A stretch of 64,000 nucleotides of DNA from Candidatus Binataceae bacterium (GTDB taxonomy: Bacteria; Desulfobacterota; Binatia; Binatales; Binataceae): NCBI GenBank assembly GCA_035541875.1, contig DATKML010000034.1, forward strand, positions 56,367 through 120,366. Reading direction: 5' to 3'. The translations under genes and the position numbers were made by a program. Shown piece by piece: positions 16,989 through 63,120 of the stretch; within the stretch, counting starts at the first letter, position 1; every line of letters begins with the position of its first letter. A model generated the notes under the pieces. It made no database searches, was not told the origin of the DNA, and was given only the letters and a program-made list of their open reading frames with translations.

Positions 16989-17048
16989 CATTTGTCATCC
17001 TGAGCCGACGAGCGAAGGCGAGTCGTGTCGAAGGATCTACGCGAAGCG
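16989..17048 (+). repeat. Miniature dispersed repeat, copy 1: CATTTGTCATCCTGAGCC, then a variable hairpin of about 24 nt, then AAGGATCTACGCGAAGCG.
   Basis: It is directly alignable to inverted copies at 37538-37596 and 38795-38860. In one frame it translates to CHPEPTSEGES, the hallmark of the widespread CHPERSEGSAF-type repeat family. Confidence 0.75.
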
Positions 17049-17175
17049 ATTCGCCGATGCCACGCAGCGTACATAGTGAGTGGGGGCTGCTGCAATTGTT
17101 GCGCTGGACGTTTGCACAGCTCGTTGACTGTCGACTAATTGATTCCCTCAACTCGACGCGAGTGAGGCGCTATCA

Positions 17176-33807: not shown

Positions 33808-34302
33808 ATGAAACGACTAGCGATATCCTGGCTAACGCTACTCCTAGTAGCATCTGCTATTCCTGCATTAGCGCAGACGCCTAATCCGAGAGCCGAGGCG
33901 GAATGGCAGCACTATCTGACGAAGCATCCGGGGCTGCAGCAACATCCGGAATGGTTGTTGAATCAGAACTTCCTGAACGAACATCCCAACATGACGAAGT
34001 GGCTGCAGGAGCATCCGGCGGTCTACAAGCAAGCACGCCAGCAAGGCATGTGGGACAATCAAGGACGCTGGCACGACGCTCAGTGGTGGCGTCAAAACGA
34101 CCCCAAGGCCGTAGCCCAATATCATCCGAATTGGGCGCATGAACATGAAGCTGAAGCCGAACCTGCGAAGGGAGACGGCGACTGGGACGAGCACCATCAT
34201 TGGCGGGCTCGCGAATGGTGGGTAGAACATCACCACGAGTGGACGGAAAAGCATCATCCTGAGTGGATGCAGTCAAATCAGCCGCCCCCGGCCCAGCACT
34301 AA
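33808..34302 (+). CDS. Secreted His/Trp-rich repeat protein, hypothetical (possible periplasmic metal-binding protein).
   Basis: The signal peptide is MKRLAISWLTLLLVASAIPALA. HPEW/HPNW/HHHEW motifs are repeated. The RBS is AAGGCGGAG. The region reads visibly lower in GC than its neighbours. Confidence 0.55.
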   Translation: MKRLAISWLTLLLVASAIPALAQTPNPRAEAEWQHYLTKHPGLQQHPEWLLNQNFLNEHPNMTKWLQEHPAVYKQARQQGMWDNQGRWHDAQWWRQNDPKAVAQYHPNWAHEHEAEAEPAKGDGDWDEHHHWRAREWWVEHHHEWTEKHHPEWMQSNQPPPAQH

Positions 34303-34370: not shown

Positions 34371-35324
34371 CTAATATTCGGGCTTAAAGTCGAAGTGATG
34401 GATCGATTCGATGAAGCGGACCGTGCGGGTCTTCGAGCGCATCACGACGCTGTTCGTCTGAGCGCCGCCGGAGAAAAAGCGCACGCCGCGCAGGTAGTCA
34501 CCAGTGGTCACGCCCGTCGCCGCGAACATCACATTGTCACCGGCCAATTCTTCGAGCATGAACTTGCGGCGCAGATCGAGGATTCCGGCCGCGAGACAGG
34601 CTTCAACCTCGCGCTCATCGCGGGGAGTGAAGCGGCATTGCATCTCACCACCAGCGGAGCGAATCGCTGCGGCGGCCAGCACGCCCTGATGCGCTCCGCC
34701 CACGCCGATCAATAAATCGATTTCGCTTTCCGGACGGGTCGTCGCGATCGCGGCGGAAAGATCACCAGCGGTCAGCAGCTTGATACCCGCGCCGGCCTGC
34801 CGAATCTCGGCAATCAGCTTGTCGTGGCGCGGACGATCGAGAATCGCGACGCGCAGGTCCTCGACGTAAACCTTCTTGGCCTCGGCCAACGCGCGCAGGT
34901 TATCACTGGGCGATTTATCGAGATCGATCACGCCGCGACCGATAGGTCCGGAGGCGATCTTATCCATATAGGTATCGGGGCAACGGAGAAGCTTGCCGCG
35001 TTCGGCCAGCGCTACGCATGAGAGCGCGTTGGGCCCACCGGTCGCGCAGATAAGCGGACCTTCGAGCGCGTCGAGCGCGAGGTCAACTTCCGGGCCTGCG
35101 CCGGTGCCGACGATCTCTTCGGTATAAAGAAGCTCAGCGCTGCCGCGCGGACCCTCGCCCACGATGATCTTGCCGTCGAAGGCGATTGAGTTGAGCGTAT
35201 TGCGCATCGCTTCGGCGGCGACGCGATCAGCTGCTTGCTCGTCGCCTTTGCCGATAAAACGAGCCGCGGCAAGAGCGGCAGCCTCGGTCGCGCGGACGAC
35301 CTCGAGCGCAAGATTTCGTTCCAT
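34371..35324 (-). CDS. glpX: Fructose-1,6-bisphosphatase class II.
   Basis: The 317-aa GlpX family sequence is alignable along its whole length. Confidence 0.85.
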   Translation of the reverse strand: MERNLALEVVRATEAAALAAARFIGKGDEQAADRVAAEAMRNTLNSIAFDGKIIVGEGPRGSAELLYTEEIVGTGAGPEVDLALDALEGPLICATGGPNALSCVALAERGKLLRCPDTYMDKIASGPIGRGVIDLDKSPSDNLRALAEAKKVYVEDLRVAILDRPRHDKLIAEIRQAGAGIKLLTAGDLSAAIATTRPESEIDLLIGVGGAHQGVLAAAAIRSAGGEMQCRFTPRDEREVEACLAAGILDLRRKFMLEELAGDNVMFAATGVTTGDYLRGVRFFSGGAQTNSVVMRSKTRTVRFIESIHHFDFKPEY

Positions 35325-35335
35325 GATGCGTCCCC

Positions 35336-36559
35336 TTAGCTTTGCGGCAAAGCAGCACCGAAGAGTGCGTCGATTAGACGATAGCCCACCGTCACGACCA
35401 CCTTGGCCTGCTTGGCGTCAGCCTCAGTATAACGCCTCCGGTTTGCAGAGTCGTTACGTAGAGCTTTGCCATCGAGCAGCGCAAAGGGCACCGGCTCAGG
35501 AGCGTGCGTCTTGAGCTTCGACGGCGTCGCATGATCGGGCATCAGCAGGAGGCGGAAATCGCCGAAGGACGGCAACTCTTTCAGCATCGGTCCGAGGATC
35601 AGCTCATCGATCCGCTCAATCGCTTCGGCTTTGAGATCCGCGCGACCCATGTGGCCAGCCTCGTCAGGAGCCTCGACGTGCAGGATCAGAAAATCGCGTT
35701 CCTTCAGAGACGCAAGACCGTAACGCCCCTTGGCGGCGTAATCAGTATCGAGAAATCCGGTCGCACCGGGAACTGTAATGACATTGAGACCAGCCAAGCG
35801 GCCCAGGCCGTTCACCAGATCGACGGCAGAGATAACGGAACCATCAACGCCGAAACGATCCTTAAGCGTCGGCACCTGAGGTTTCTTGCCCTGCCCCCAA
35901 AACCAGGCGGAGGTTGCTTGCGGCTTACCCGCATCGCGGCGAGCGCGATTCACCGGATGGTCACGCAGAATTTCGGCCGCATCGCGGCGGATCTTCTCGA
36001 GACGATCGGCACCCGGACCGGACGGCAGATGCGACTCGATCGATTGCCCGGTGATATCGTGCGGCGGGGTCAGCTTCGCACCGTTGATTCCGCCGCGCCA
36101 TACCATCAGATGGCGATAGCTGACCCCGTTGTGGAACTCAATACCGTTGCCGCTGAGCGCACGGCTGATATCCGCAACAATCTGACCGGATTCTTCGCTC
36201 ATGATATGGCCGGAGGTGAAGTCCCCCATGATCATCGAGCCACTGTCGCCAGGCTTCAACGTCACCAGATTCATCCGAAAGACGACGTCATCGGGACCCA
36301 GTTCGATTCCCATGCTCGCGGCTTCGATCGGCGCGCGGCCGGTATGGTAGCGCGCGGGATCGTAGCCGAGCATCGTCATCGTGCCGACGTCGCTACCGGG
36401 CGGCATCCCTGCCGGAATCGTAGCGACCAACCCAAGCTGCCCGCAGGAAGCAATCCGATCCATGTTGGGTTTGCGCGCGGCTTCGAGCGGAGTCTTGCCG
36501 CCGAGTTCATCGCAGGGCCAATCGGCCATCCCGTCGCCGTGGAGGATGATGTATTTCAT
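35336..36559 (-). CDS. Archaeal-type cofactor-independent phosphoglycerate mutase homolog (ApgM family); a candidate non-orthologous homoserine kinase.
   Basis: It is 407 aa, begins MKYIILHGDGMAD and has alkaline-phosphatase-superfamily metal ligands. It sits about 1 kb downstream of thrC-hom and no thrB is present in the window. Confidence 0.8.
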   Translation of the reverse strand: MKYIILHGDGMADWPCDELGGKTPLEAARKPNMDRIASCGQLGLVATIPAGMPPGSDVGTMTMLGYDPARYHTGRAPIEAASMGIELGPDDVVFRMNLVTLKPGDSGSMIMGDFTSGHIMSEESGQIVADISRALSGNGIEFHNGVSYRHLMVWRGGINGAKLTPPHDITGQSIESHLPSGPGADRLEKIRRDAAEILRDHPVNRARRDAGKPQATSAWFWGQGKKPQVPTLKDRFGVDGSVISAVDLVNGLGRLAGLNVITVPGATGFLDTDYAAKGRYGLASLKERDFLILHVEAPDEAGHMGRADLKAEAIERIDELILGPMLKELPSFGDFRLLLMPDHATPSKLKTHAPEPVPFALLDGKALRNDSANRRRYTEADAKQAKVVVTVGYRLIDALFGAALPQS

Positions 36560-37289
36560 GTCTCCTTAATTTGCCGCGATTTTATTGAGCTTTTCGGCAT
36601 CGTACACCATTTCCGCTCTCTGTTCACACACTTACTAATGGCGTAAGGCCATCTCATTCAAAAGTTGCAGAAACGCGGACGCAGATTTTCCGGTTAGCAA
36701 AAACGTAAATTCTTGCCGCAGATGCTACTCATAGGTAGTATATGCACAAGTTTAGAGATGATTGTTGTAAGAAAATATTGTTTTCGCAACTTAAAGCATC
36801 TCTCACTCGCACTGATATGTGTGGTTGTGCTGTGTCGGCCTTGGCTCATTGCTGTGCAGACGATCACCGATGAGGAACAAGGGCACTCGCTACAATCGAT
36901 TCTTGTTGACTCTCATCTATCGGTGCTCAAAGCGGCGCGGCGGCGGCCGATAGCCTTCGCCGCGACCAAACCCAATACCACGTTAATCGCTATCGCGATT
37001 GCCACGACTAATCGGCGGGTGGCGTCGAGTGTCCGACGCTTTGCGCCCTATCCGATTGTCGGCTTTCCGCTCGCCAGCAAGCTTCCATCAGGCTTTGCCC
37101 CGCGCCCGCCGCCTGTTCTGGCTTAGTCCCAAGCTTAATAAGAACAGTTCGATGTAAGTGCGCTTGGGTTTTGTGCCCTCGCGCCGAGGTGTGAGCGTCT
37201 ACGCTGCTGACCTTTGTCCAGCGCCGGAATTCGCTCAGGGTAATCGTGCACAGTGTCTTACCTGTGGCACGCCTGATGGAGATCTATCG

Positions 37290-37484
37290 ATGAAAGCTAT
37301 TATTGCACTCTATGTGCGAGTTCGAGAATCAATGAAGCGACTGGAAAAGGGCCAGACGATGACTGAGTATGCACTGATTATGGCCGCCGTCGCCGTAGTG
37401 GTGTTCGTGACATATCAGAAGATGGGTCAGAATATTGGATCGCTCGTGAACAAGATCAATACCGATCTGACGACCGCGAGTTAG
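37290..37484 (+). CDS. Flp/Fap family type IVb pilin (prepilin).
   Basis: The leader ends ...MKRLEKG, followed by QTMTEYALIMAAVAVVVFVTY, the Flp processing motif plus a hydrophobic helix. Alternative start ATGs are at 37290 (GGAG upstream) and 37332. It is an orphan, with no tad genes nearby. Confidence 0.6.
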   Translation: MKAIIALYVRVRESMKRLEKGQTMTEYALIMAAVAVVVFVTYQKMGQNIGSLVNKINTDLTTAS

Positions 37485-37537
37485 TATCAGTAGTATATGT
37501 TTGCGAAGAGCCCTCGGTGGAGACGCCGGGGGCTCTT

Positions 37538-37596
37538 CGCTTCGCGTAGATCCTTAGACGCGTCTCGCGATACTCGCTGGCTCAGGATGACAAATG
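37538..37596 (-). repeat. Miniature dispersed repeat, copy 2 (inverted relative to copy 1).
   Basis: The reverse complement reads CATTTGTCATCCTGAGCC...AGACGCGTCT palindrome...AAGGATCTACGCGAAGCG. It fills the convergent gap between flp and thrC. Confidence 0.75.
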
Positions 37597-37605
37597 AGCT
37601 ATCTA

Positions 37606-38706
37606 TCAGCTCTCCAGAATCTTGATGACCTTGTCGATATCCGGTTCGACCACCAGCGTGTTGCTGAGATTCTTGAGTGCCGTATCCGGATCTTTCAGGC
37701 CGTGGCCGGTCAGTGTGCAGACCGCGACCGAGCCAGGCTTCAGTCCGCCTGCCGCACTGTACTTGAGCAGGCCAGCGACCGACGTCGCCGATGCGGGCTC
37801 GGCGAACACCCCCTGCGATGCGATCAATCGATAGGCCGCGAGAATCTCGGCGTCGGTAACCATATCGATAACACCGCCGGACTCGTCGCGCGCGTTGGTC
37901 GCGCCCTTCCAGCTAGCGGGATTGCCGATCTTGATCGCGGTGGCGACGGTATGCGGATCGTCGATCGGATGGCCGAGCACGATCGGAGCTGATTCCGCCG
38001 CCTGATAGCCCATCATCTTGGGCAAACGCTCGGAGAGCTTCTCAGCCTTATATTCCTGGTATCCCGCCCAATAGGCAGTGATATTGCCGGCGTTACCGAC
38101 CGGAAGAAAATGATGCGTCGGGGCGTCGCCGAGCTGATCACAAATCTCGAACGCACCGGTCTTCTGTCCGGCGATACGATCAGGATTAACGCTGTTCACG
38201 AGGCGGATACGCACCGGATCGCGCTCGGCGAGGTCGCGCACGACCTTCAGGCAGATATCGAAGTTGCCGATAATCTCGACCACGCGCGCACCATGCATCA
38301 CGCTCTGAGAGAGCTTGCCCAGCGCGACCGATCCCTTGGGAATCAGCACGTAAGCCTGGAGGCCGGCGCGGGCCGCATAGGCAGCCGCCGAAGCAGCGGT
38401 GTTGCCGGTCGAGGCGCAGATGACCTTCTTGGCGCCCTCGCCCAGCGCCTTGCTCATCGCGACGGTCATCCCGCGATCTTTGAAGGAGCCGGTCGGATTC
38501 GCGCCCTCGAACTTGAGATAGACTTTGACACCGCTACCAACGCGCTCAGCAAGCGCGGGGCTTTCAATAAGGGGCGTGTTGCCTTCGTTGAGAGTGACGA
38601 CCGGAGTCGCCTCGGTGACCGGCAGGAAGCGGCGATAGTGCTCGATCAATCCGGGCCATCGCGTGAGGCGATTATTCGAAGAGGGTTTTTGCGTTTTCGG
38701 CGGCAT
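37606..38706 (-). CDS. thrC: Threonine synthase.
   Basis: It has the PLP-dependent fold-type II core with GNPTGSFKDRG containing the Lys. Confidence 0.9.
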   Translation of the reverse strand: MPPKTQKPSSNNRLTRWPGLIEHYRRFLPVTEATPVVTLNEGNTPLIESPALAERVGSGVKVYLKFEGANPTGSFKDRGMTVAMSKALGEGAKKVICASTGNTAASAAAYAARAGLQAYVLIPKGSVALGKLSQSVMHGARVVEIIGNFDICLKVVRDLAERDPVRIRLVNSVNPDRIAGQKTGAFEICDQLGDAPTHHFLPVGNAGNITAYWAGYQEYKAEKLSERLPKMMGYQAAESAPIVLGHPIDDPHTVATAIKIGNPASWKGATNARDESGGVIDMVTDAEILAAYRLIASQGVFAEPASATSVAGLLKYSAAGGLKPGSVAVCTLTGHGLKDPDTALKNLSNTLVVEPDIDKVIKILES

Positions 38707-38794
38707 TCGTTTTTACGTCCGTAGTATGGAGAGCTTCGCCATTCCGGTAATCGGTACCGGCTGCACTTGCCATCAAGCGCTCACGCGCGTGATG

Positions 38795-38860
38795 GCTCGC
38801 GAAGCAATCCGAGATTCTTCGCTGCGCCCGCGCTGCTCGCTTCGCTCAGAATGACAAAAT
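38795..38860 (-). repeat. Miniature dispersed repeat, copy 3 (more diverged).
   Basis: The reverse complement reads TTTTGTCATTCTGAGCGAAGCGAG...CGAAGAATCTC. It lies in the thrC-hom intergenic spacer. Confidence 0.65.
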
Positions 38861-38874
38861 CGGACCATCCTGCC

Positions 38875-40194
38875 TCATAGGTCCTCTTCGATGCGAATAA
38901 AAGCGGGCGGGCCTTCGATCATCTTGAGCCGGCTGATCGCAGTCAGTGCTCGACGGAGATTCCGCTCACGCGCCTGATGGGTCCGCATAATTACCGGCAC
39001 AGTCTTCTCGACGGCGCGCTCCTGCTGAATCACCGAAGCGATCGAGATCTGGTTGCGGCCGAGAATCGAGGCGATCGTCCCCAGCACGCCCGGCTGATCG
39101 CGCGCGGTGAAGCGCAGATAGTACTCGCATACCACGTCGTCCATCGGCTTTACACGCGCCCGCTTGACCATTGTGGGTGGATAGCCGAGCGGAGGTGCCG
39201 CAGCACTCGATTCAGCGCGGCGGTGACGCGCAATTTCGAGGATATCGGCGACGACAGCAGTTGCCGTCGGCATCATGCCGGCACCACGACCGTAATACAT
39301 ACTCGCGCCCAGCGCCTCGCTATGCACGTAGATCGCGTTGAAAGCACCAACGACGCTAGCCAGCAGATGGCGCGTGCGGATCATCGTCGGATGAACCCGC
39401 GCCTCAATCTTGCCGCTGTCGTCCTTGGCGATCGCGAGCAGCTTAATCGTGTAGCCGAGCTCGCGGGCGTAGTCGATATCGGCACGGCTCACGCGGCTGA
39501 TACCCTCGGTATAAACCTGCGCGGGCTTGAGGCTTACGCCGAAGGCGAGCGTCACGAGCAGACAGAGCTTATGTGCGGCGTCGTGCCCCTCGATATCGAG
39601 CGTCGGATCGGCCTCAGCCAGGCCCGTGCGCTGCGCTTCCTTGAGCGCATCAGCGAACTCCGCACCCGCGTCGCTCATCATGCTGAGAATCGAGTTGCAG
39701 GTGCCGTTGACGATACCGTACACGGCTCGTTGGCGATCGCCGGCGAGTGCCTCACGCAGCGTCCGCATGATCGGAATACCGCCGCCGACGCTCGCTTCGA
39801 AGCCGATCGCGCGACCATGCTTCTGCGCCAGCTTGAACAGCTCCTCACCACATTCAGCGAGTAGTGCTTTGTTGGCGGTGACGACATCCTTGCCCGCATC
39901 CAAGGCCTGTTGAATCAGGCTATAAGCCGGTTCGATACCGCCGAACAGTTCAACCACCAGATCGACATCGTCGCGGGTGACCAGCGCCGCCGCGTCACGC
40001 GTGATTAGCTTAGCGTCGAGACCGATCGATGGATTCGGTTTGAGGCTCCGATCGGCAACCCCGGCAAGCTCGAGCGGCGCACCCAGCTTGCTCGCAAGCA
40101 TCGCCGCATTGCTGCGCAGCAGCCGAACGACTCCCTCGCCGACCGTCCCGCATCCGAGCAGGGCGATCCTGATTGGCTTGATTGTGCTCGCCAC
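38875..40194 (-). CDS. hom: Homoserine dehydrogenase with a C-terminal ACT domain.
   Basis: The NAD-binding N-terminus is IKPIRIALLGCGTVG. The start is set at a GTG that lies 4 nt after the upstream aminotransferase stop, giving a 439-aa protein. In-frame alternative starts at ATG 40239 and TTG 40296 would overlap the upstream gene. Confidence 0.75.
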   Translation of the reverse strand: MASTIKPIRIALLGCGTVGEGVVRLLRSNAAMLASKLGAPLELAGVADRSLKPNPSIGLDAKLITRDAAALVTRDDVDLVVELFGGIEPAYSLIQQALDAGKDVVTANKALLAECGEELFKLAQKHGRAIGFEASVGGGIPIMRTLREALAGDRQRAVYGIVNGTCNSILSMMSDAGAEFADALKEAQRTGLAEADPTLDIEGHDAAHKLCLLVTLAFGVSLKPAQVYTEGISRVSRADIDYARELGYTIKLLAIAKDDSGKIEARVHPTMIRTRHLLASVVGAFNAIYVHSEALGASMYYGRGAGMMPTATAVVADILEIARHRRAESSAAAPPLGYPPTMVKRARVKPMDDVVCEYYLRFTARDQPGVLGTIASILGRNQISIASVIQQERAVEKTVPVIMRTHQARERNLRRALTAISRLKMIEGPPAFIRIEEDL

Positions 40195-40198
40195 GGGA

Positions 40199-41404
40199 TC
40201 AGGAAGAGGCGGCTCGGCGCAGGCGTGGAACTTCGGCATGCGAAAGCGCCTGGCGGATACCGCGTACGGCCTGTCGCGTGCGATGTTCGTTCTCAATCAG
40301 GGCGAAGCGGACGTGGCTATCGCCGTCGGGACCAAAACCGACACCCGGCGAGACCGCGACTTTGGCTTCACTCAGCAGAAACTTTGCGAATTCAAGCGAG
40401 CCCATCGCGCGGAAAGGCTCCGGAATCGGCGCCCACACGAACATCGTCGCCTTCGGCTTTTCGACCGGCCATCCGGCGCGATTGAGGCCATTCACGAGGA
40501 CATCGCGACGCTTGCGATACATATCGACAATCTCGGTGACGCAGTCCTGCGGTCCGTTCAGGGCGGCGATCGCCGCGACCTGAACCGGCGCAAAGGTACC
40601 GTAATCGAAGTATGACTTGATCCGGGTCAGCGCTCCAATCATCTCGCGATTACCAACCGCGAAACCGACGCGCCATCCGGGCATGTTGTAGCTCTTGGAG
40701 AGGGTGAAGAACTCAACCGCCACATCACGCGCGCCGGGGATCTCCATGATCGACGGGGCTTTGTAGCCGTCAAAGCACAGGTCGGCGTACGCGAGATCGT
40801 GCACGACCAGAAGCTGGTTCTCACGAGCGAAATCGACCACCCGCTGCATGAAATTCAGATTCACAGTCGCCGTGGTCGGATTGTGCGGGAAGTTCATGAT
40901 GAGCAGCTTCGGGCGCGGCCAAGAATGGCTCATCGCAGCGGTCATTTCGTCGAAGAATTCCTCGCCACTACGCATCGGAACGCCGACGACCTGCGCCCCC
41001 GCGATAATGCATCCGTACTGATGGATCGGATAAGTCGGTGTCGGCGCAAGCACCACGTCGCCCTGATCGAGGATGGCGAGCGCCAGATGGGCGATACCCT
41101 CTTTCGATCCGATTGTGACGATCGCTTCGGAATCCGGATCGAGTTCAACGCCGTAGCGGCGTTTGTACCAATCGCAAATTGCGAGGCGCAGCTTGTAGAT
41201 ACCGCGCGACACGGAATAGCGATGGTTCGCGCCCTTGGCAGCGGCTTCAATCAGCTTATTAACGATATGGGGAGGAGTCGGCTCGTCAGGATTACCCATC
41301 CCGAAGTCGATAATGTCCTCACCGGCGCGACGGGCCTTGAGACAGAGCTCGCCGATCGCGTTGAAGACATAAGGTGGTAAGCGTTTGATTCGAGGAAATT
41401 CCAT
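40199..41404 (-). CDS. Class I/II PLP-dependent aminotransferase, AlaC-like (glutamate-pyruvate aminotransferase family).
   Basis: The N-terminus [34 protein letters not shown] and the [10 protein letters not shown] Lys motif closely resemble AlaC/YfdZ. Confidence 0.8.
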
Positions 41405-42854: not shown

Positions 42855-44228
42855 TTGCTCGTGAATCCCAAATTGCAGTTATCAATCGCCTTTTCCCCCA
42901 ACGCTGTCGAGCCGCGATGGTACGTTCGTGGCGCGAGGCTTACCGCCGTTCTCAGCCTCGCCACGCGTATCTACGTGCGTTACAAGGCAATCCAGATTTG
43001 GTCGCGCGTTATCAGCGACCGGCATAAAGAGAGGCGCTATCGGCGCCAGGATCTGCGCGCGGCCCAGGCGGTCTATCGCACCTCGATTCGTCTTGAGGGC
43101 CTGCTAATCAAGGCCAGTCAGTTTATCGCAACGCGCGCCGATATTCTGCCCAGTGAATGGGTCGATACGCTCGCCGCTCTGCACGACCGTGTGCCGCCGC
43201 GTCCCTTTAACGTCATTCGCGAGGTCGTCGAAACGGAATTCAGGCGACCGCTCGATACGGTCTTCGCGGAGTTCGATCAGCAACCGATCGCGGCGGCGTC
43301 GCTAGCGCAGGTTCATCGGGCACGCACTCACGACGGCCGGCGATGCGCCGTCAAAGTGCAGTATCCGAATATCGAGGGATTGGTCCGCGCTGATCTGCGG
43401 AACCTGATGCTCACGCTGCGCATCCTGGCGCGACTTGAACCCGACTTCGATTTCCAGGTGATCGCGGGAGAGATTCTCAAGTACATCCCGATGGAACTCG
43501 ACTTTCTCAACGAGGCGCGCAACTCCGACACGATCCGGAAGAATTTTGCCCAGCGCGCCGACGTGACGGTGCCGAGCGTCTATCACGATCTGTCGACGCG
43601 TCGCGTCCTGACGATGGAACTGGTCGAGGGAGTGAAGGTGACCGACCTCGAAGGACTCGCGCGCGAGGGGATCGACAAGCGCGAGGTCGGGCAGAAGTTA
43701 CTCGAAATTTTCACCGAGATGATCCTGCGCGACGGCTTCTTCCACGCCGACCCGCATCCGGGGAATATCCTCGTACAGCCGGGACCGCGAATCGTGCTCC
43801 TCGATTTCGGCCTAGCTAAGGATTTTCCGCCGGCCTTTCGCGACGGGATGGTGCGACTGACCTTCGCAATCCTGACGAGCAACAAAGAAGCGGTGCTGGC
43901 GGCTTTTCGCGATCTGGGCTTCCGCACCCGCAATGACTCCCCGGAGACCCTGTTGCTGCTCGCCGACCTCTTTCTCGGGAATTCGGTAAAGCGGAACCGG
44001 GCCTTCGCCGATCGTCAGCTGATCGAAGAGTTCTCCGAGCAGCTGCCGCGCGCGATTCGGTCGAACCCGATCGTCGAGGTCCCCGCCGACGTACTGCTGG
44101 TGAATCGCGTGATGGGGCTCCTTAGCGGGATGGGCAAGACGCTCGATACGCAGGTCGACATGTTCGGCACGCTGATGCCCTATGCGAGCAGCCTGATGGC
44201 CGCGCAGGCCGAGAGCGCAGGCAAGTAG
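42855..44228 (+). CDS. ABC1/UbiB family atypical protein kinase.
   Basis: The kinase-like motifs are AAASLAQVHRA, CAVKVQYP and FFHADPHPGNILV. Confidence 0.8.
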   Translation: MLVNPKLQLSIAFSPNAVEPRWYVRGARLTAVLSLATRIYVRYKAIQIWSRVISDRHKERRYRRQDLRAAQAVYRTSIRLEGLLIKASQFIATRADILPSEWVDTLAALHDRVPPRPFNVIREVVETEFRRPLDTVFAEFDQQPIAAASLAQVHRARTHDGRRCAVKVQYPNIEGLVRADLRNLMLTLRILARLEPDFDFQVIAGEILKYIPMELDFLNEARNSDTIRKNFAQRADVTVPSVYHDLSTRRVLTMELVEGVKVTDLEGLAREGIDKREVGQKLLEIFTEMILRDGFFHADPHPGNILVQPGPRIVLLDFGLAKDFPPAFRDGMVRLTFAILTSNKEAVLAAFRDLGFRTRNDSPETLLLLADLFLGNSVKRNRAFADRQLIEEFSEQLPRAIRSNPIVEVPADVLLVNRVMGLLSGMGKTLDTQVDMFGTLMPYASSLMAAQAESAGK

Positions 44229-45302: not shown

Positions 45303-45374
45303 GCCCCGGTAGTGAAAAGGACATCACGGAGGTCTCCGGAACCTCAAGTCCGGGTTCGACTCCCGGCCGGGGCA
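45303..45374 (+). tRNA. tRNA-Arg (anticodon CCG).
   Basis: I folded it manually. The acceptor stem GCCCCGG pairs with CCGGGGC. The D-stem is GTGA/TCAC. The anticodon stem is GAGGT/ACCTC with loop CTCCGGA (U33, CCG, G37). The T-arm is CCGGG-TTCGACT-CCCGG with discriminator A. CCA is not encoded. Confidence 0.85.
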
Positions 45375-46087
45375 CTCAAATCAGTGAAATTCCTTGAAAG
45401 TAAAAGACTCTTTCCCGCAACGGCTACGGCGGGCGGCACGGTTTGGCTCAGGTTTGGCAGCGGCTGCAAAGGAACTGCCCGTTTTGGCAGCCGCGTGATG
45501 GCCAAAAAGAACGCATCGAGGTCGAGCGCCTTCGCCTCCGGCGTGCGCGTCCAACGCCCATAAACCTCGTCGATCTTCTTCACGCCGACGTGACCGAGCT
45601 GATGCGCGATCCATTACAGCGGCTTGTCCGCACAGATCATCAAAGTGGTGTAGGTGTGACGCAGGTTGTAGAGCACACGATAATCGACGCCGGCTCGTGC
45701 CACTGCGCGCCGCCACGGATGATCGCCCACGCTGCGCTCCAGCATCGGTCGCCCCTTCGGGCCGCAGAAAACGAACCGACTCCGGAGCCGATTGAGCACG
45801 AGTACGTCGAACAGCGCCAGCCTCACCGGCTCAAACATCTCCACCGTACGCCGTGAACTCTTCGTCTTGAGCCGGAGCGAGACCTCGCCCTTCTCGAGCA
45901 TCTGCTGGCGCACCAGGATCGTGCTCTCAGCGAAGTTGATATGATCAGGCATCAGAGCCAAAGCTTCGGACGGGCGCAGCCCGCTAAGCGCCAGCAGAAG
46001 GTAAAGCGCACGCTGTTGACCCTCACAGACGGCAAAGATCCGATTCCGTAGGATCGCCCTCCATATCGGCGGGCATGCGGTTAGCAC
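45344..46087 (-). pseudogene. Tyrosine recombinase (phage-type integrase) remnant. It is N-terminally truncated and frameshifted.
   Basis: ORF 45614-46087 carries the catalytic-domain LSGLRPSEALAL and LRHTYTTLMI (box II) motifs. The continuation with the catalytic Tyr (KKIDEVYGRW) lies in a different frame, 45344-45583. The 3-prime end overlaps the tRNA-Arg 3-prime half, and the N-terminal core-binding domain is missing. Confidence 0.7.
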
Positions 46088-46343
46088 GGTAAAAGAGCAC
46101 TTCGGCGGAGATTCCGATGATCTGTGCGAGCTGCTCGATCAGGTAGTTGGGTGGTGGACGCCGCCGGTCGTGTTCCACCGCGTTCAAGTAGGGCGCATCA
46201 ACCGGCCTTCCGTCTTCGCGCCGCAGACGTTCGGCAACCTCCTTTTGGGTTAATCCGGCCCGCTTGCGAGCCTCCGTAAGGATCGTCCCGAACGTTCTCA
46301 TACTTTCAGGTTTCTGCATTTCATTCAGGACTTCATCCCTCAA
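46023..46343 (-). CDS. XRE-family helix-turn-helix transcriptional regulator.
   Basis: The HTH is TFGTILTEARKRAGLTQKEVAERL. It is 106 aa and its 3-prime end overlaps the truncated integrase. Confidence 0.6.
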   Translation of the reverse strand: MRDEVLNEMQKPESMRTFGTILTEARKRAGLTQKEVAERLRREDGRPVDAPYLNAVEHDRRRPPPNYLIEQLAQIIGISAEVLFYRANRMPADMEGDPTESDLCRL

Positions 46344-52164: not shown

Positions 52165-53202
52165 ATGATGAGATCACTTACCCGTGCCCGTCCCTCTCAG
52201 ACGGCTACGGTATTAGCGCTCCTGATCACGCTGCTGGCGGCGCGAGCGAACGCTCAGAATGACCCACTGCCGTCCTGGAACGAGGGCCCGGCCAAGCAGT
52301 CAATCATAACCCTCGCGAAGGATGTCACGGATAAGTCGAGCCCCTCGTATGTAGAACCACAAGATCGCATCGCCACCTTCGACCAGGACGGGACTCTCTG
52401 GGTTGAACACCCGATATACACACAGGTGGCCTTCGCGCTTGACCGTGTGGTGGAATTGGCGCCGAAGCATCCGGAGTGGAAAGCCACTGAGCCCTTCAAG
52501 GCGGTTCTCACTGACGACAAAGCCGCCATGGCCAAGTTTACGCTCCGCGACTTCGAAAAGATTATTTTCGCGACCCACACTGGCATGACCGTGGAACAAT
52601 TCAATGCGATCGCCAAGGATTGGATCGCCAAAGCCAGAAATCCGCGATGGAAGAGGCCCTATACTGACCTTGTATATCAGCCGATGCGAGAGGTTCTCGA
52701 CTATCTGCGGGCTAATGGCTTCAAGACCTACATCGTTACGGGGGGTGGTCAGGACTTCGTTCGGTCTTACGCGGTGCAAACCTACGGCATACCGCCCGAG
52801 CAGATTATTGGGTCGGCGCTCGAGACCGATTACACCTATAACAAAGAAGGTCAGGGGATATTGATGCGGCCTCCCAAGGTGTTGCTTAACAACAACTTCT
52901 CGGGCAAGCCGGAAGACATCTATCTGTTCACCGGGCGTCGTCCTCAGGCCACATTCGGCAATTCGACTGGCGACAGGGAGATGCTGGAATACACCCAAAC
53001 TGGCGGCAAGGAGGCGTTGATGATGCTGGTACTTCACGATGATCCGACCCGCGAGTATGCCTACGGCCCGGCTCAAGGGCTGCCGGATACCAAGGTCGGT
53101 ACTTTTTCGAAGGCACTGTATGACGAAGCGAGGACCCGAGGCTGGAACGTCATCAGCATGAAAAAGGATTGGAAACGAATCTTCGCCTTTGACCCCCAAT
53201 AG
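52165..53202 (+). CDS. Secreted HAD-superfamily hydrolase (putative phosphatase).
   Basis: It has a signal peptide. HAD motif I is FDQDGTLW. The later motifs are YIVTGGG and FGNSTGD. Confidence 0.65.
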   Translation: MMRSLTRARPSQTATVLALLITLLAARANAQNDPLPSWNEGPAKQSIITLAKDVTDKSSPSYVEPQDRIATFDQDGTLWVEHPIYTQVAFALDRVVELAPKHPEWKATEPFKAVLTDDKAAMAKFTLRDFEKIIFATHTGMTVEQFNAIAKDWIAKARNPRWKRPYTDLVYQPMREVLDYLRANGFKTYIVTGGGQDFVRSYAVQTYGIPPEQIIGSALETDYTYNKEGQGILMRPPKVLLNNNFSGKPEDIYLFTGRRPQATFGNSTGDREMLEYTQTGGKEALMMLVLHDDPTREYAYGPAQGLPDTKVGTFSKALYDEARTRGWNVISMKKDWKRIFAFDPQ

Positions 53203-60865: not shown

Positions 60866-62038
60866 TCAGCTTGCCGTTGCCATCATCGCCATCGCGATTC
60901 GCGCAATCGTTCCCGTCAGTCGCCGTCTTCGCGAGAGATAATGAATCACTCGTCGTCGCGTACCGGGGCGCCTGGCGAGAAACAGCATTGCCTTGGTCGC
61001 TATGGCATAACCACGGAATAAACGGTGAGCTTCGCGCTCGTACGGCTCAAGACTTTTCTCGCTGCTGTTGGCCTGAAGCAATGCCGAAAGATGGCGACCC
61101 AAGATAAGCGCCGAATTGAACGCGATCGAAAGCCCATCGCCCGCAATCGAATCAACAAAGCCAGCCGCGTCGCCGATTAGAACGAAGCGTTCCGCAACGC
61201 GGCGACTGACGCCGCAAGCCATCGGTCCAGCGCCTTTCGGCATCGATATTGGCTCAGCGTCCTGGAGCCGCGTATTAAGCAGCGGAAAGCGTGTAAGCAA
61301 AGTGGGAATCGTCGGCCGGTAGAACGCGCCATCCTGCCATGTGAAGTTGACCGAGACTGTGTCCGCAGTGACCGGCGTGACTACGGCTTCGCCAAACGCG
61401 TCGACGTAAACCTCAACGGACTCAGACCATGGCGTGGTCAAAAAATGCTGTCGGAGTGCAAAGCGCCGTGGAAGCGAGCTGACACAGTGCAAACCAGCAC
61501 CACGCCGGAAGAGCGAATGAAGACCGTCAGCAGCAACGACGAGGCTTGCGTGCACAGCGGGGCCAGCTGTTCGTAGTATCGCACCGTCCTTTTCGACTTT
61601 AATGTTGGTGACATTGGTCGCGTAACGGACGGCCACTCCAAGCTGCTGAGCTCGCTGCGTCAGCGCTTTCAGCAGGGTTGTGCGCCGGATTCCCAAGCCG
61701 CCTCCTTGAGGGAGGGGAACTTCGACAGACGAACCATCTTCCTGGAAAAAGTGGATGCCCCTGAAGGATCGGACCTCGGTGTCGTCGAGATGCGCCAACA
61801 CCCCCAAGCGCCGTAAAGCTTCGACACCCGGAGGCAGGACGCCCTCGCCACACGCCTTGTCAGCGGCGAACCCACGCCGCTCCAAAACTATAACGCTCCG
61901 CCCCGCCGCGGCCGCGACGATTGCCGTGGCCAGGCCCGCGGGACCGCCACCAATGACGGCAATGTCGTAACGAGATCGATCGGTCGATAGGTCGCCCTGA
62001 TCTAATCGCGCGTCCGCCGTTATTGGGTGGATTACCAT
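60866..62038 (-). CDS. FAD-dependent oxidoreductase / flavoprotein monooxygenase (geranylgeranyl-reductase-like fold).
   Basis: The motifs are YDIAVIGGGPAGLATA (GxGxxG) and GDAAGFVD. There is a 7-nt overlap with the upstream type III PKS stop. Confidence 0.8.
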   Translation of the reverse strand: MVIHPITADARLDQGDLSTDRSRYDIAVIGGGPAGLATAIVAAAAGRSVIVLERRGFAADKACGEGVLPPGVEALRRLGVLAHLDDTEVRSFRGIHFFQEDGSSVEVPLPQGGGLGIRRTTLLKALTQRAQQLGVAVRYATNVTNIKVEKDGAILRTAGPAVHASLVVAADGLHSLFRRGAGLHCVSSLPRRFALRQHFLTTPWSESVEVYVDAFGEAVVTPVTADTVSVNFTWQDGAFYRPTIPTLLTRFPLLNTRLQDAEPISMPKGAGPMACGVSRRVAERFVLIGDAAGFVDSIAGDGLSIAFNSALILGRHLSALLQANSSEKSLEPYEREAHRLFRGYAIATKAMLFLARRPGTRRRVIHYLSRRRRLTGTIARIAMAMMATAS

Positions 62039-63120
62039 TGCAACAGCAGCAACTCGCCGCAGAACCCGGGACCCATCGAGAGGAGCAGGCCATACTCACC
62101 GGAACGCGGTTTGGCTGATTGCATGAAGTCCTCGGCTACGAAGAGCACCGATGCCGACGACAGGTTTCCGATAGCTGCCAGGGACTTCCAAGATCCGGCG
62201 AGGCTGCATCGAGGTAGCTCAAGTGCCTCCTGCATCGCCTGCAAGACCTTGGGGCCCCCAGTGTGCGCAATCCAATGTTTAATCGACTCGCGTGAGAGTT
62301 TGTTTTGTGCAAGAAACTCGTCGGCGACTACACGCAGATTGGTTCGGATTAAGTGGGGAACACCGGGGGCAAGAACGATCTCGAAACCGGTTTCGCGCAT
62401 CCGCCAACCCATCATCTCTTCGGTGTCGGGAAAAAAGACTGACTGCGAACTGACAATCCGTGGGCATCGTGGTCCGGCTGGATTACGCCCGCCGGTTACG
62501 ATCGCAGCTGCAGCCCCGTCAGCAAACAGTCCTGAGGCAATCAGGTTGGCGGTCGATCGATCTTTGAGTTGCAGCGTCAGAGAGCAGAGTTCGACACTGA
62601 CCAAAAGAGCGACCTGATCGGGAAACGCGCGAACATAATCTGCTGCGCGTGCGAGACCAGCAGCTCCGCCTACACAGCCGAGGCCAAAGAGGGGCGTCCG
62701 CTTTATATCGGTGCGCATCCCAAGGCGATTGATCAATTTGGCGTCGATACTCGGTGAGGCGATCCCGGTGACCGTCGTGAAAAAAATATGGTCGATATCT
62801 GCAGGAGCCATTCCGCCCGCGCTTAATGCGTTGCGCACAGCCGCCTCGCCCAGTTCCGCAGCTCGTTCGATCCAACGATCATTGGCCTTACCGAACGAAT
62901 CAATCGCGCGATATTCCTCGATAGGAAGTGCCAAGTGACGCCCTCGAACACCAACGGACTTGTGCAGTCGTTCAAACCGAGTGCGATCCCGGACAGAGCC
63001 GCCCCATTCGTTCCATAGAGCCGATGATAGGACTTCTTGCGAATAATAATTTGCAGGTAGCGCAGTGCCGATCGCGGTTAGCGCCGGTATATTTCCTTCC
63101 GTCTTAGCGAAACCAAGCAT
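62032..63120 (-). CDS. Type III polyketide synthase (chalcone/stilbene synthase superfamily).
   Basis: The active-site Cys lies in LFGLGCVGGAAGL. Downstream His/Asn regions are present (WIAHTGGPKVL, GNLSSASV). The protein is 362 aa. Confidence 0.85.
   Translation of the reverse strand: MLGFAKTEGNIPALTAIGTALPANYYSQEVLSSALWNEWGGSVRDRTRFERLHKSVGVRGRHLALPIEEYRAIDSFGKANDRWIERAAELGEAAVRNALSAGGMAPADIDHIFFTTVTGIASPSIDAKLINRLGMRTDIKRTPLFGLGCVGGAAGLARAADYVRAFPDQVALLVSVELCSLTLQLKDRSTANLIASGLFADGAAAAIVTGGRNPAGPRCPRIVSSQSVFFPDTEEMMGWRMRETGFEIVLAPGVPHLIRTNLRVVADEFLAQNKLSRESIKHWIAHTGGPKVLQAMQEALELPRCSLAGSWKSLAAIGNLSSASVLFVAEDFMQSAKPRSGEYGLLLSMGPGFCGELLLLQW

Follow-up and report, generated by a model that had tools for sequence, protein, structure and literature searches.

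Which enzyme supplies threonine synthase with O-phospho-L-homoserine in a locus that carries hom and thrC side by side, without a recognizable thrB? The question is raised by a 64,000-nucleotide stretch of contig DATKML010000034.1 from a Candidatus Binataceae bacterium, hereafter referred to as the window. The gene for homoserine dehydrogenase, hom, extends from 38875 to 40194, and that for threonine synthase, thrC, from 37606 to 38706. Both lie on the minus strand and are separated by a 168-nt spacer, and thus the adjacency claimed in an earlier note on this DNA is borne out. On the same strand, beginning 1,046 nt past the end of thrC and 2.3 kb past that of hom, is an ApgM-like gene coding for 407 amino acid residues (35336-36559), which is referred to here as homK (thrB2). 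Its product is most likely HomK/ThrB2, an enzyme with the ApgM fold of the alkaline-phosphatase superfamily that supplies O-phospho-L-homoserine to ThrC and replaces the ThrB of the GHMP family. Hom makes the substrate of HomK, and ThrC consumes O-phosphohomoserine. The earlier note had described the gene as an archaeal-type homolog of cofactor-independent phosphoglycerate mutase (iPGM), located ~1 kb downstream of thrC and next to glpX, and had put it forward as the candidate homoserine kinase. The coordinates and gene content are correct, and the candidacy is supported by the TIGR02535 cutoff, the HomK-type glutamate, and the placement of the gene behind hom-thrC in relatives. The spacing also holds, but the gap is not empty: it contains an opposite-strand flp gene that the note overlooked.

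Scans of the ~55 open reading frames (ORFs) of the window against Pfam and NCBIfam revealed neither a GHMP kinase nor an APH-type kinase, and no phosphoglycerate mutase besides the ApgM-like protein. Likewise, a six-frame tblastn search of the window with E. coli ThrB returned nothing, the best E-value being 6.5. The query sequence was confirmed by its match to TIGR00191 (406.8 bits). The statement that no GHMP-type thrB is present thus stands for these 64 kb, and for these 64 kb only rather than for the genome. Two other proteins were considered as the homoserine kinase and rejected. The ABC1/UbiB kinase (42855-44228) belongs to the wrong family, and the HAD-IB-like ORF (52165-53202), which is the sole HAD protein of the window, was considered as a ThrH but scored 28 bits on HAD-IB, below the cutoff, with no ThrH match.

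The 407-residue protein matches TIGR02535, the hidden Markov model (HMM) named "proposed homoserine kinase," with 492.9 bits versus a trusted cutoff of 446.3, and the match covers residues 1-399. By contrast, it fails the two archaeal iPGM equivalog models, NF003104 (276.8 versus 489 bits) and NF003160 (167.5 versus 468 bits), by wide margins. The Pfam domains PF10143 and PF01676 score 182 and 128 bits, respectively, and a sequence search of the PDB returned archaeal ApgM structures alone (2zkt, 3kd8, and 3idd). An AlphaFold2 model with a predicted local distance difference test (pLDDT) score of 96.3 has 2zkt as its top PDB match, with a TM score of 0.80-0.85, and no close structural match was found outside the archaeal iPGM group. 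With the ApgM enzymes from P. horikoshii (PH0037, 2zkt) and T. acidophilum (3kd8/3idd), the protein shares the two-domain fold, the PF10143 and PF01676 domains, the serine nucleophile, and the binuclear metal site, at 25-30% identity in Foldseek structural alignments. Fold and domain pair are common to HomK and iPGM, and are thus non-discriminating. The best 120 homologs are all Binataceae-like. We take the gene to be a HomK/ThrB2 (TIGR02535) member in a Binataceae genome that is evidently misnamed in the public record as a phosphoglycerate mutase.

HomK keeps its catalytic centre complete, with Ser56 as the nucleophile and D9, D299, H303, D342, H343, and H352 as metal ligands. These seven active-site residues align with counterparts in 2zkt and 3kd8 and are >90% conserved among 150 representatives, which are the best at 50% clustering and display 36-53% identity. 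In the motif H-V-E296-A-P-D299-E-A-G-H303, E296 aligns with a lysine of both solved archaeal iPGMs, 2zkt and 3kd8. Glutamate occupies this position in 134 of the 150 best representatives. Among full-length proteins it is found in 113 of the 124 that are HomK-like, whereas lysine is found in 116 of the 117 homologs of P. horikoshii iPGM (2zkt) that constitute the iPGM set. Position 221 is arginine in 100% of the 116 Lys-bearing 2zkt homologs. Altogether, four positions separate the groups, in the sense that they are at least 85% conserved inside each group and different between them. Given with the HomK-like residue first, these are Y148/H, W219/L, W221/R, and E296/K. The Binataceae protein displays all four HomK states, and neither the Lys296 nor the Arg221 of the iPGMs is encountered. 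From their positions in the sequence, E296, W219, and W221 would lie near Ser56. The presence of one acidic and two aromatic residues in place of lysine, arginine, and histidine is what would be expected upon a swap from phosphoglycerate, an anion, to an amino acid. A more doubtful suggestion is that the four-residue set Y148/W219/W221/E296, as opposed to H/L/R/K, describes the switch of substrate more completely than does the published glutamate alone.

That glutamate, E299 of BT2402 from Bacteroides thetaiotaomicron, was found independently to be a specificity determinant that is lysine in iPGMs (10.1101/2024.10.14.618325). It probably corresponds to E296 here, given the numbering offsets (S56 for S56, and D346/H347 for D342/H343), the iPGM lysine, and the representative P0222. 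The latter protein, which is placed among archaeal E-type proteins (Bathyarchaeota, Methanosarcina, and ANME-2), has D9, S56, E299, D346, and H347 as in BT2402, with E299 positioned three residues before D302-x3-H306. Note that in four other HomK-like proteins of 36-44% identity (P0164, P0177, P0246, and P0265) the catalytic serine, Asp9, or other metal ligands are missing, and that P0164 additionally has a lysine at position 296. These may be inactive or repurposed paralogs.

The surroundings of homK were compared across 80 loci from Binatota, Desulfobacterota, Nitrospirota, Omnitrophota, Bacillota, Planctomycetes, Methanosarcinales, and others. The loci were returned by a contig scan with the pattern H[VIL][EA][AG][PA]DE[ACS][GS]H, a Glu/Ala-type motif, and thus the sample is HomK-type by construction. 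The neighboring ORFs were clustered, and those that share the strand of homK and lie no more than 5 kb away from it were counted. Upstream of homK were observed hom (32/80 loci), thrC (28/80, at a median distance of ~120 nt), an alaC-like aminotransferase gene (18/80), and a gene for a MoaD-like protein (11/80). Aspartate kinase (NF005155) lies immediately downstream in 24/80, and citramalate synthase and glpX are downstream in 16/80 and 7/80, respectively. Either hom or thrC occurs in 37/80 loci, and hom, thrC, or aspartate kinase in 45/80. Many of the loci that have no aspartate-family partner are short contigs or come from Geobacterales and Clostridia. In many Desulfobacterota and Nitrospirota, homK is followed by aspartate kinase and cimA. 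Binataceae relatives at 70-75% identity carry hom, thrC, homK, and glpX in this order on a single strand, and their thrC-homK spacers measure 15-195 nt. In five of the loci (L002 and L004-L007) thrC either adjoins homK or is separated from it by a single same-strand hydrolase gene. The pairing of homK with glpX occurs only in the closest clade, where it is direct in L002-L009 and L011 and extends over 4.7 kb in L058.

In the window, the thrC-homK junction is interrupted by flp (37290-37484, plus strand), an orphan Flp/Fap pilin gene coding for 64 residues with no tad genes nearby. Its match to PF04964 (31.8 bits, E 1.2e-7) is slightly below the 32.2-bit Pfam gathering cutoff. A near-identical contig (L001), in which the insert is likewise present, carries a public gene call of 64 residues with the PF04964 family on record. 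The gene sits in an insert of ~850 nt (within ~36600-37500) that, in the alignment, is missing from the relatives at 70-75% identity; in one of these (L002) the thrC-homK spacer is 195 nt. To judge from this alignment, the insert with flp is lineage-specific and has split a conserved junction. The ancestral unit is, by the same reasoning, (alaC)-hom-thrC-homK-glpX on one strand, which here appears divided into alaC-hom-thrC and homK-glpX. As a consequence of the opposite-strand gene in the gap, thrC and homK are presumably not contained in one transcript here. The transcription units were drawn solely from the orientation and spacing of the genes together with the inserted flp.

Several of the loci displayed other features. 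In Nitrospirota/Thermodesulfovibrionales (L025, L033, L045, and L053) the order is a ThrC paralog, a MoaD-like protein of ~94 residues, thrC, homK, and aspartate kinase. L033 has no thrC in that order, and in L053 cimA is next. The paralogs contain 410-415 residues and show 31-33% identity to ThrC. The paralog and the MoaD-like protein form a pair that resembles the MetM/MetO thiocarboxylate homocysteine synthase, which likewise consumes O-phosphohomoserine. If the likeness is true, it would provide further indirect support for the product of HomK. A Bacillota metagenome-assembled genome (MAG; locus L083) contains a ThrB-like gene of the GHMP type, which matches E. coli ThrB with 116 bits at 28% identity, together with hom, both positioned 1.4-2.3 kb downstream of a Glu-type HomK-like gene and on the opposite strand. 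Because both types occur in L083, ThrB and HomK are not strictly exclusive. Finally, eight proteins of ~1,000-1,100 residues (P0135, P0138, P0144, P0154, P0160, P0174, P0196, and P0231) have an N-terminal HomK-like domain. None of their C-terminal tails has a Pfam match, and in P0135, P0138, and P0160 an acidic linker leads to a predicted transmembrane helix and from there to ~500 residues of repeat-rich sequence. One of these long proteins is from a Clostridia MAG, and the architecture is odd for a biosynthetic enzyme. They were considered as "Rosetta stone" fusions to threonine enzymes and rejected, for the tails look like a membrane anchor followed by an extracellular repeat domain.

The HomK family and its role have already been published, and the addition made here is the member from an uncultured Binataceae (Binatota) lineage. 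TIGR02535 was put forward as a ThrB replacement by the TIGRFAMs curators, and mutants of B. thetaiotaomicron in BT2402 require threonine, as reported with GapMind in 2020 (PMC7311316). The name ThrB2 was given by Ashniev et al. in 2022, who encountered the family in 300 gut genomes, of which 278 have no thrB and 22 have both genes; thrB and thrB2 occur in complementary genome sets (PMC9026213). In the GapMind preprint of 2026, BT2402 and the divergent DET_RS08350 of Dehalococcoides mccartyi were shown to rescue E. coli thrB::kan, and the family was renamed HomK (10.1101/2024.10.14.618325). The earlier note had credited the proposal to comparative genomics. Such a proposal does exist, but genetics and complementation have now been added to it (PMC7311316; 10.1101/2024.10.14.618325). 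Among the papers searched, we found no report on threonine synthesis in Binatota. In common with the HomK/ThrB2 family, of which BT2402 and DET_RS08350 are examples, the Binataceae protein has a TIGR02535 score above the trusted cutoff and the specificity glutamate. It also shares with HomK/ThrB2 the ApgM fold, the catalytic Ser56 and seven metal ligands (Ser56 among them), the location behind hom-thrC in relatives, and the lack of a ThrB nearby. Unlike homK of Bacteroides, which lies in a thrA-thrB2-thrC operon, the Binataceae gene is split from thrC by the flp insert and coupled to glpX. The Binataceae HomK probably has the activity of its homologs, to judge from their published genetics and complementation.

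In the mechanism proposed for the enzyme, Ser56 would be activated by a binuclear metal centre, one site of which would comprise D9, S56, D342, and H343, and the second D299, H303, and H352. The serine would be phosphorylated by the donor and would then pass the phosphoryl group on to the γ-hydroxyl of homoserine, a ping-pong scheme comparable to that of the iPGMs with their phosphoserine intermediate. Glu296, situated three residues ahead of the ligand D299 and in place of the iPGM lysine, would bind the α-amino group of homoserine. With Trp221, Trp219, and Tyr148 in place of the arginine, leucine, and histidine of iPGMs, the cationic pocket for phosphoglycerate would be gone. The donor is probably not ATP; phosphoserine, phosphoglycerate, and phosphoenolpyruvate have been proposed. 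For the family, it has been argued that the donor is not ATP and that phosphoglycerate is improbable as well, and phosphoserine was named as a speculative candidate (10.1101/2024.10.14.618325). The term "kinase" is thus probably a misnomer, the expected enzyme being a phosphotransferase that proceeds through a phosphoserine-enzyme with a non-ATP donor. For the same reason, an assay with homoserine and ATP could be falsely negative. Two known enzymes are instructive for comparison. The GHMP ThrB (TIGR00191) carries out the same step, from homoserine to the O-phosphohomoserine that feeds ThrC, but it has an unrelated fold, is ATP-dependent, and does not form a phosphoenzyme intermediate. The phosphoserine:homoserine phosphotransferase ThrH from Pseudomonas aeruginosa provides a precedent for a non-ATP donor and for the chemistry suspected for HomK (10.1101/2024.10.14.618325), although it differs in its unrelated HAD fold and its aspartyl-phosphate intermediate.

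There are several observations that weigh against the assignment as HomK. Two further models score above their cutoffs with the protein, namely NF003242, "cofactor-independent phosphoglycerate mutase" (513.8 versus 426 bits), and TIGR00306 for the apgM subfamily (485.5 versus 320 bits), and a 100% identical protein in the public record (P0001) is named cofactor-independent phosphoglycerate mutase. In the window, homK is coupled to glpX, which is gluconeogenic, and is cut off from thrC by a gene on the opposite strand. The published complementation is weak and comes from a preprint, with an increase in optical density at 600 nm of 0.14-0.25 after 47 h (10.1101/2024.10.14.618325), and an earlier attempt at complementation with BT2402 failed. 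The mapping of E299 onto E296 derives from numbering and the iPGM lysine and not from a direct alignment with BT2402. In addition, the BT2402 ligands given as D274, H278, and H325 (10.1101/2024.10.14.618325) do not fit the family motif order, which is Glu-x2-Asp-x3-His, then Asp-His, and then His.

Three other functions were weighed. In the first, the enzyme would be bifunctional in that it would phosphorylate homoserine with 2- or 3-phosphoglycerate, or with some other glycolytic or gluconeogenic phosphoester, as the donor. The homology to iPGMs makes phosphoglycerate the most obvious donor, and the tight homK-glpX pair is kept in the Binataceae clade. Such a donor would link threonine synthesis to the pool of lower glycolysis and might account for the coupling to glpX. 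We consider this improbable, however, because HomK does not co-occur with glycerate kinase, which is present in 53% of HomK versus 67% of ThrB genomes (10.1101/2024.10.14.618325), because the positively charged residues that would be expected to bind phosphoglycerate have been lost, and because the link to glpX is missing in most lineages, where aspartate kinase is downstream instead. A related and quite doubtful suggestion is that the adjacency of homK to glpX, the product of which is a class II fructose-1,6-bisphosphatase (FBPase)/SBPase, reflects a donor drawn from the gluconeogenic phosphoester pool, such as a sugar bisphosphate or phosphoglycerate, rather than phosphoserine. If it were true, the locus would offer a natural handle on the donor question.

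Alternatively, and this is the main rival, the protein could be a genuine iPGM, converting 3-phosphoglycerate to 2-phosphoglycerate for glycolysis or gluconeogenesis and co-transcribed with the FBPase gene, its proximity to thrC being incidental. The scores for NF003242 and TIGR00306, the ApgM fold with its complete catalytic centre, the 12 nt between the homK stop codon and the glpX start, a pairing that is kept in the closest clade, and a window that contains no second phosphoglycerate mutase all agree with such a role. Yet this role, too, is improbable. The lysine, arginine, and histidine that are near-invariant in the 116-117 archaeal iPGM homologs are replaced by Glu296, Trp221, and Tyr148, amounting to a reversal of charge in the pocket, and both archaeal equivalog models reject the protein. 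In relatives the gene is right behind hom-thrC, and aspartate-family genes accompany it in more than half of the loci surveyed, whereas glpX is linked to it in one clade only. Moreover, homologs with the same signature complement thrB (10.1101/2024.10.14.618325). Least likely of all is a phosphotransferase of the same family with another hydroxy-amino acid as its substrate, either converting L-threonine to L-threonine-O-3-phosphate for cobalamin ("CbiU"/cobD-linked) or catalyzing a phosphoserine-related reaction. Threonine has been proposed as the substrate of family members encoded near cobD or cobalamin genes (PMC4285132; 10.1101/2024.10.14.618325), and these also have the glutamate, so that it marks an amino-acid substrate rather than homoserine as such. 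However, the window contains no cobD or cobalamin genes, the adjoining aminotransferase is of the AlaC type (NF006033 above cutoff) and not CobD, in relatives the gene keeps hom, thrC, and aspartate kinase as its partners, and the protein passes TIGR02535, whereas the cobD-linked proteins of the preprint are nearer to TIGR00306 than to TIGR02535 (10.1101/2024.10.14.618325). The assignment of the protein as HomK, a homoserine phosphotransferase that feeds ThrC, is the one we retain.

With respect to the individual genes, the alaC-like class I/II aminotransferase gene (40199-41404, minus strand; NF006033 alanine transaminase, 682 bits versus a cutoff of 647, and PF00155) is the first of the alaC-hom-thrC unit, and 4 nt separate its stop codon from the GTG of hom. 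The start of hom at this GTG (40194) is suggested by the junction sequence and by where the HMM match begins. Hom matches NF004976 with 531.8 bits and contains PF03447 (NAD_binding_3), PF00742 (Homoserine_dh), and a C-terminal ACT domain (PF01842). ThrC matches TIGR00260 with 301.7 bits (cutoff 167.1) and PF00291. A ribosome-binding site, AAGGAGA, is positioned 5 nt before the ATG of homK. The glpX gene (34371-35324, minus strand) codes for the class II fructose-1,6-bisphosphatase (TIGR00330, 323.6 bits; PF03320), and the close spacing of its ATG to the homK stop codon suggests that the two are translationally coupled. Converging on glpX is a gene on the plus strand (33808-34302) for a 164-residue signal-peptide protein rich in His, Trp, Gln, and Glu, with many HH, EW, and WW motifs, for which Pfam and NCBIfam gave no match.

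The divergent non-coding region between flp and homK (36560-37289) is presumably the homK-glpX promoter region; it contains no credible ORF, Rfam match, or promoter-like match. When 33.4-41.7 kb was compared with Rfam at E <= 1, a single chance-level snoRNA match and no regulatory RNA were returned, and promoter and terminator scans yielded no more matches than did shuffled sequence. The region in which thrC and flp converge (37500-37612) contains a terminator-like hairpin (37612-37596) followed by a T-run, a type of match that is no commoner regionally than in shuffled sequence, as well as a repeat copy and a GC-rich hairpin formed by the inverted repeat AAGAGCCC..GGGCTCTT. The repeat is a short intergenic element that starts with TTTGTCATYCTGAGC and ends near GAAGRATCT(AC)GCGAAGCGA. 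Its 12-mer core, with the motif GTCATYCTGAGC, occurs in four copies in the window versus 0.01 expected. The copies are located at 16994-17050 (plus strand), at 37535-37591 (minus strand, with the core at 37580-37591), in the hom-thrC spacer at about 38800-38860 (minus strand), and at 52252-52263 (minus strand), such that thrC is flanked by two of them. The element looks like a repetitive extragenic palindromic (REP) or miniature inverted-repeat transposable element (MITE).

Elsewhere in the window, the G+C content of which is 54-63%, a gene for tRNA-Arg(CCG) (45303-45375) has after it a phage-type integrase gene that is truncated (45614-46087) and a gene for a helix-turn-helix protein (46023-46343). 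The G+C content dips to 0.54 at 46-48 kb, and the ORFs to ~57700 are mostly without a family match. The segment from 45303 to ~57700 has the appearance of a genomic island for which the tRNA gene served as the integration site. Near the window edge (60866-63120, minus strand), a gene for a DpgA-like type III polyketide synthase, whose 190.6 bits fall short of the cutoff, adjoins one for a flavoprotein of the geranylgeranyl-reductase family, and the two may represent a small alkylresorcinol- or pigment-type cluster.

Under the label of phosphoglycerate mutase, an automated reconstruction would score these Binataceae as devoid of a homoserine kinase and thus as threonine auxotrophs, and the same label might credit them with a glycolytic enzyme that is possibly not theirs. 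Recognition of HomK closes the gap in the threonine pathway. The identity of the donor and the sufficiency of the Glu/Trp/Trp/Tyr set for the substrate switch are family-wide questions on which others are at work. To these the locus described here contributes one more lineage, the conserved pairing of homK with glpX, and three further candidate specificity residues.

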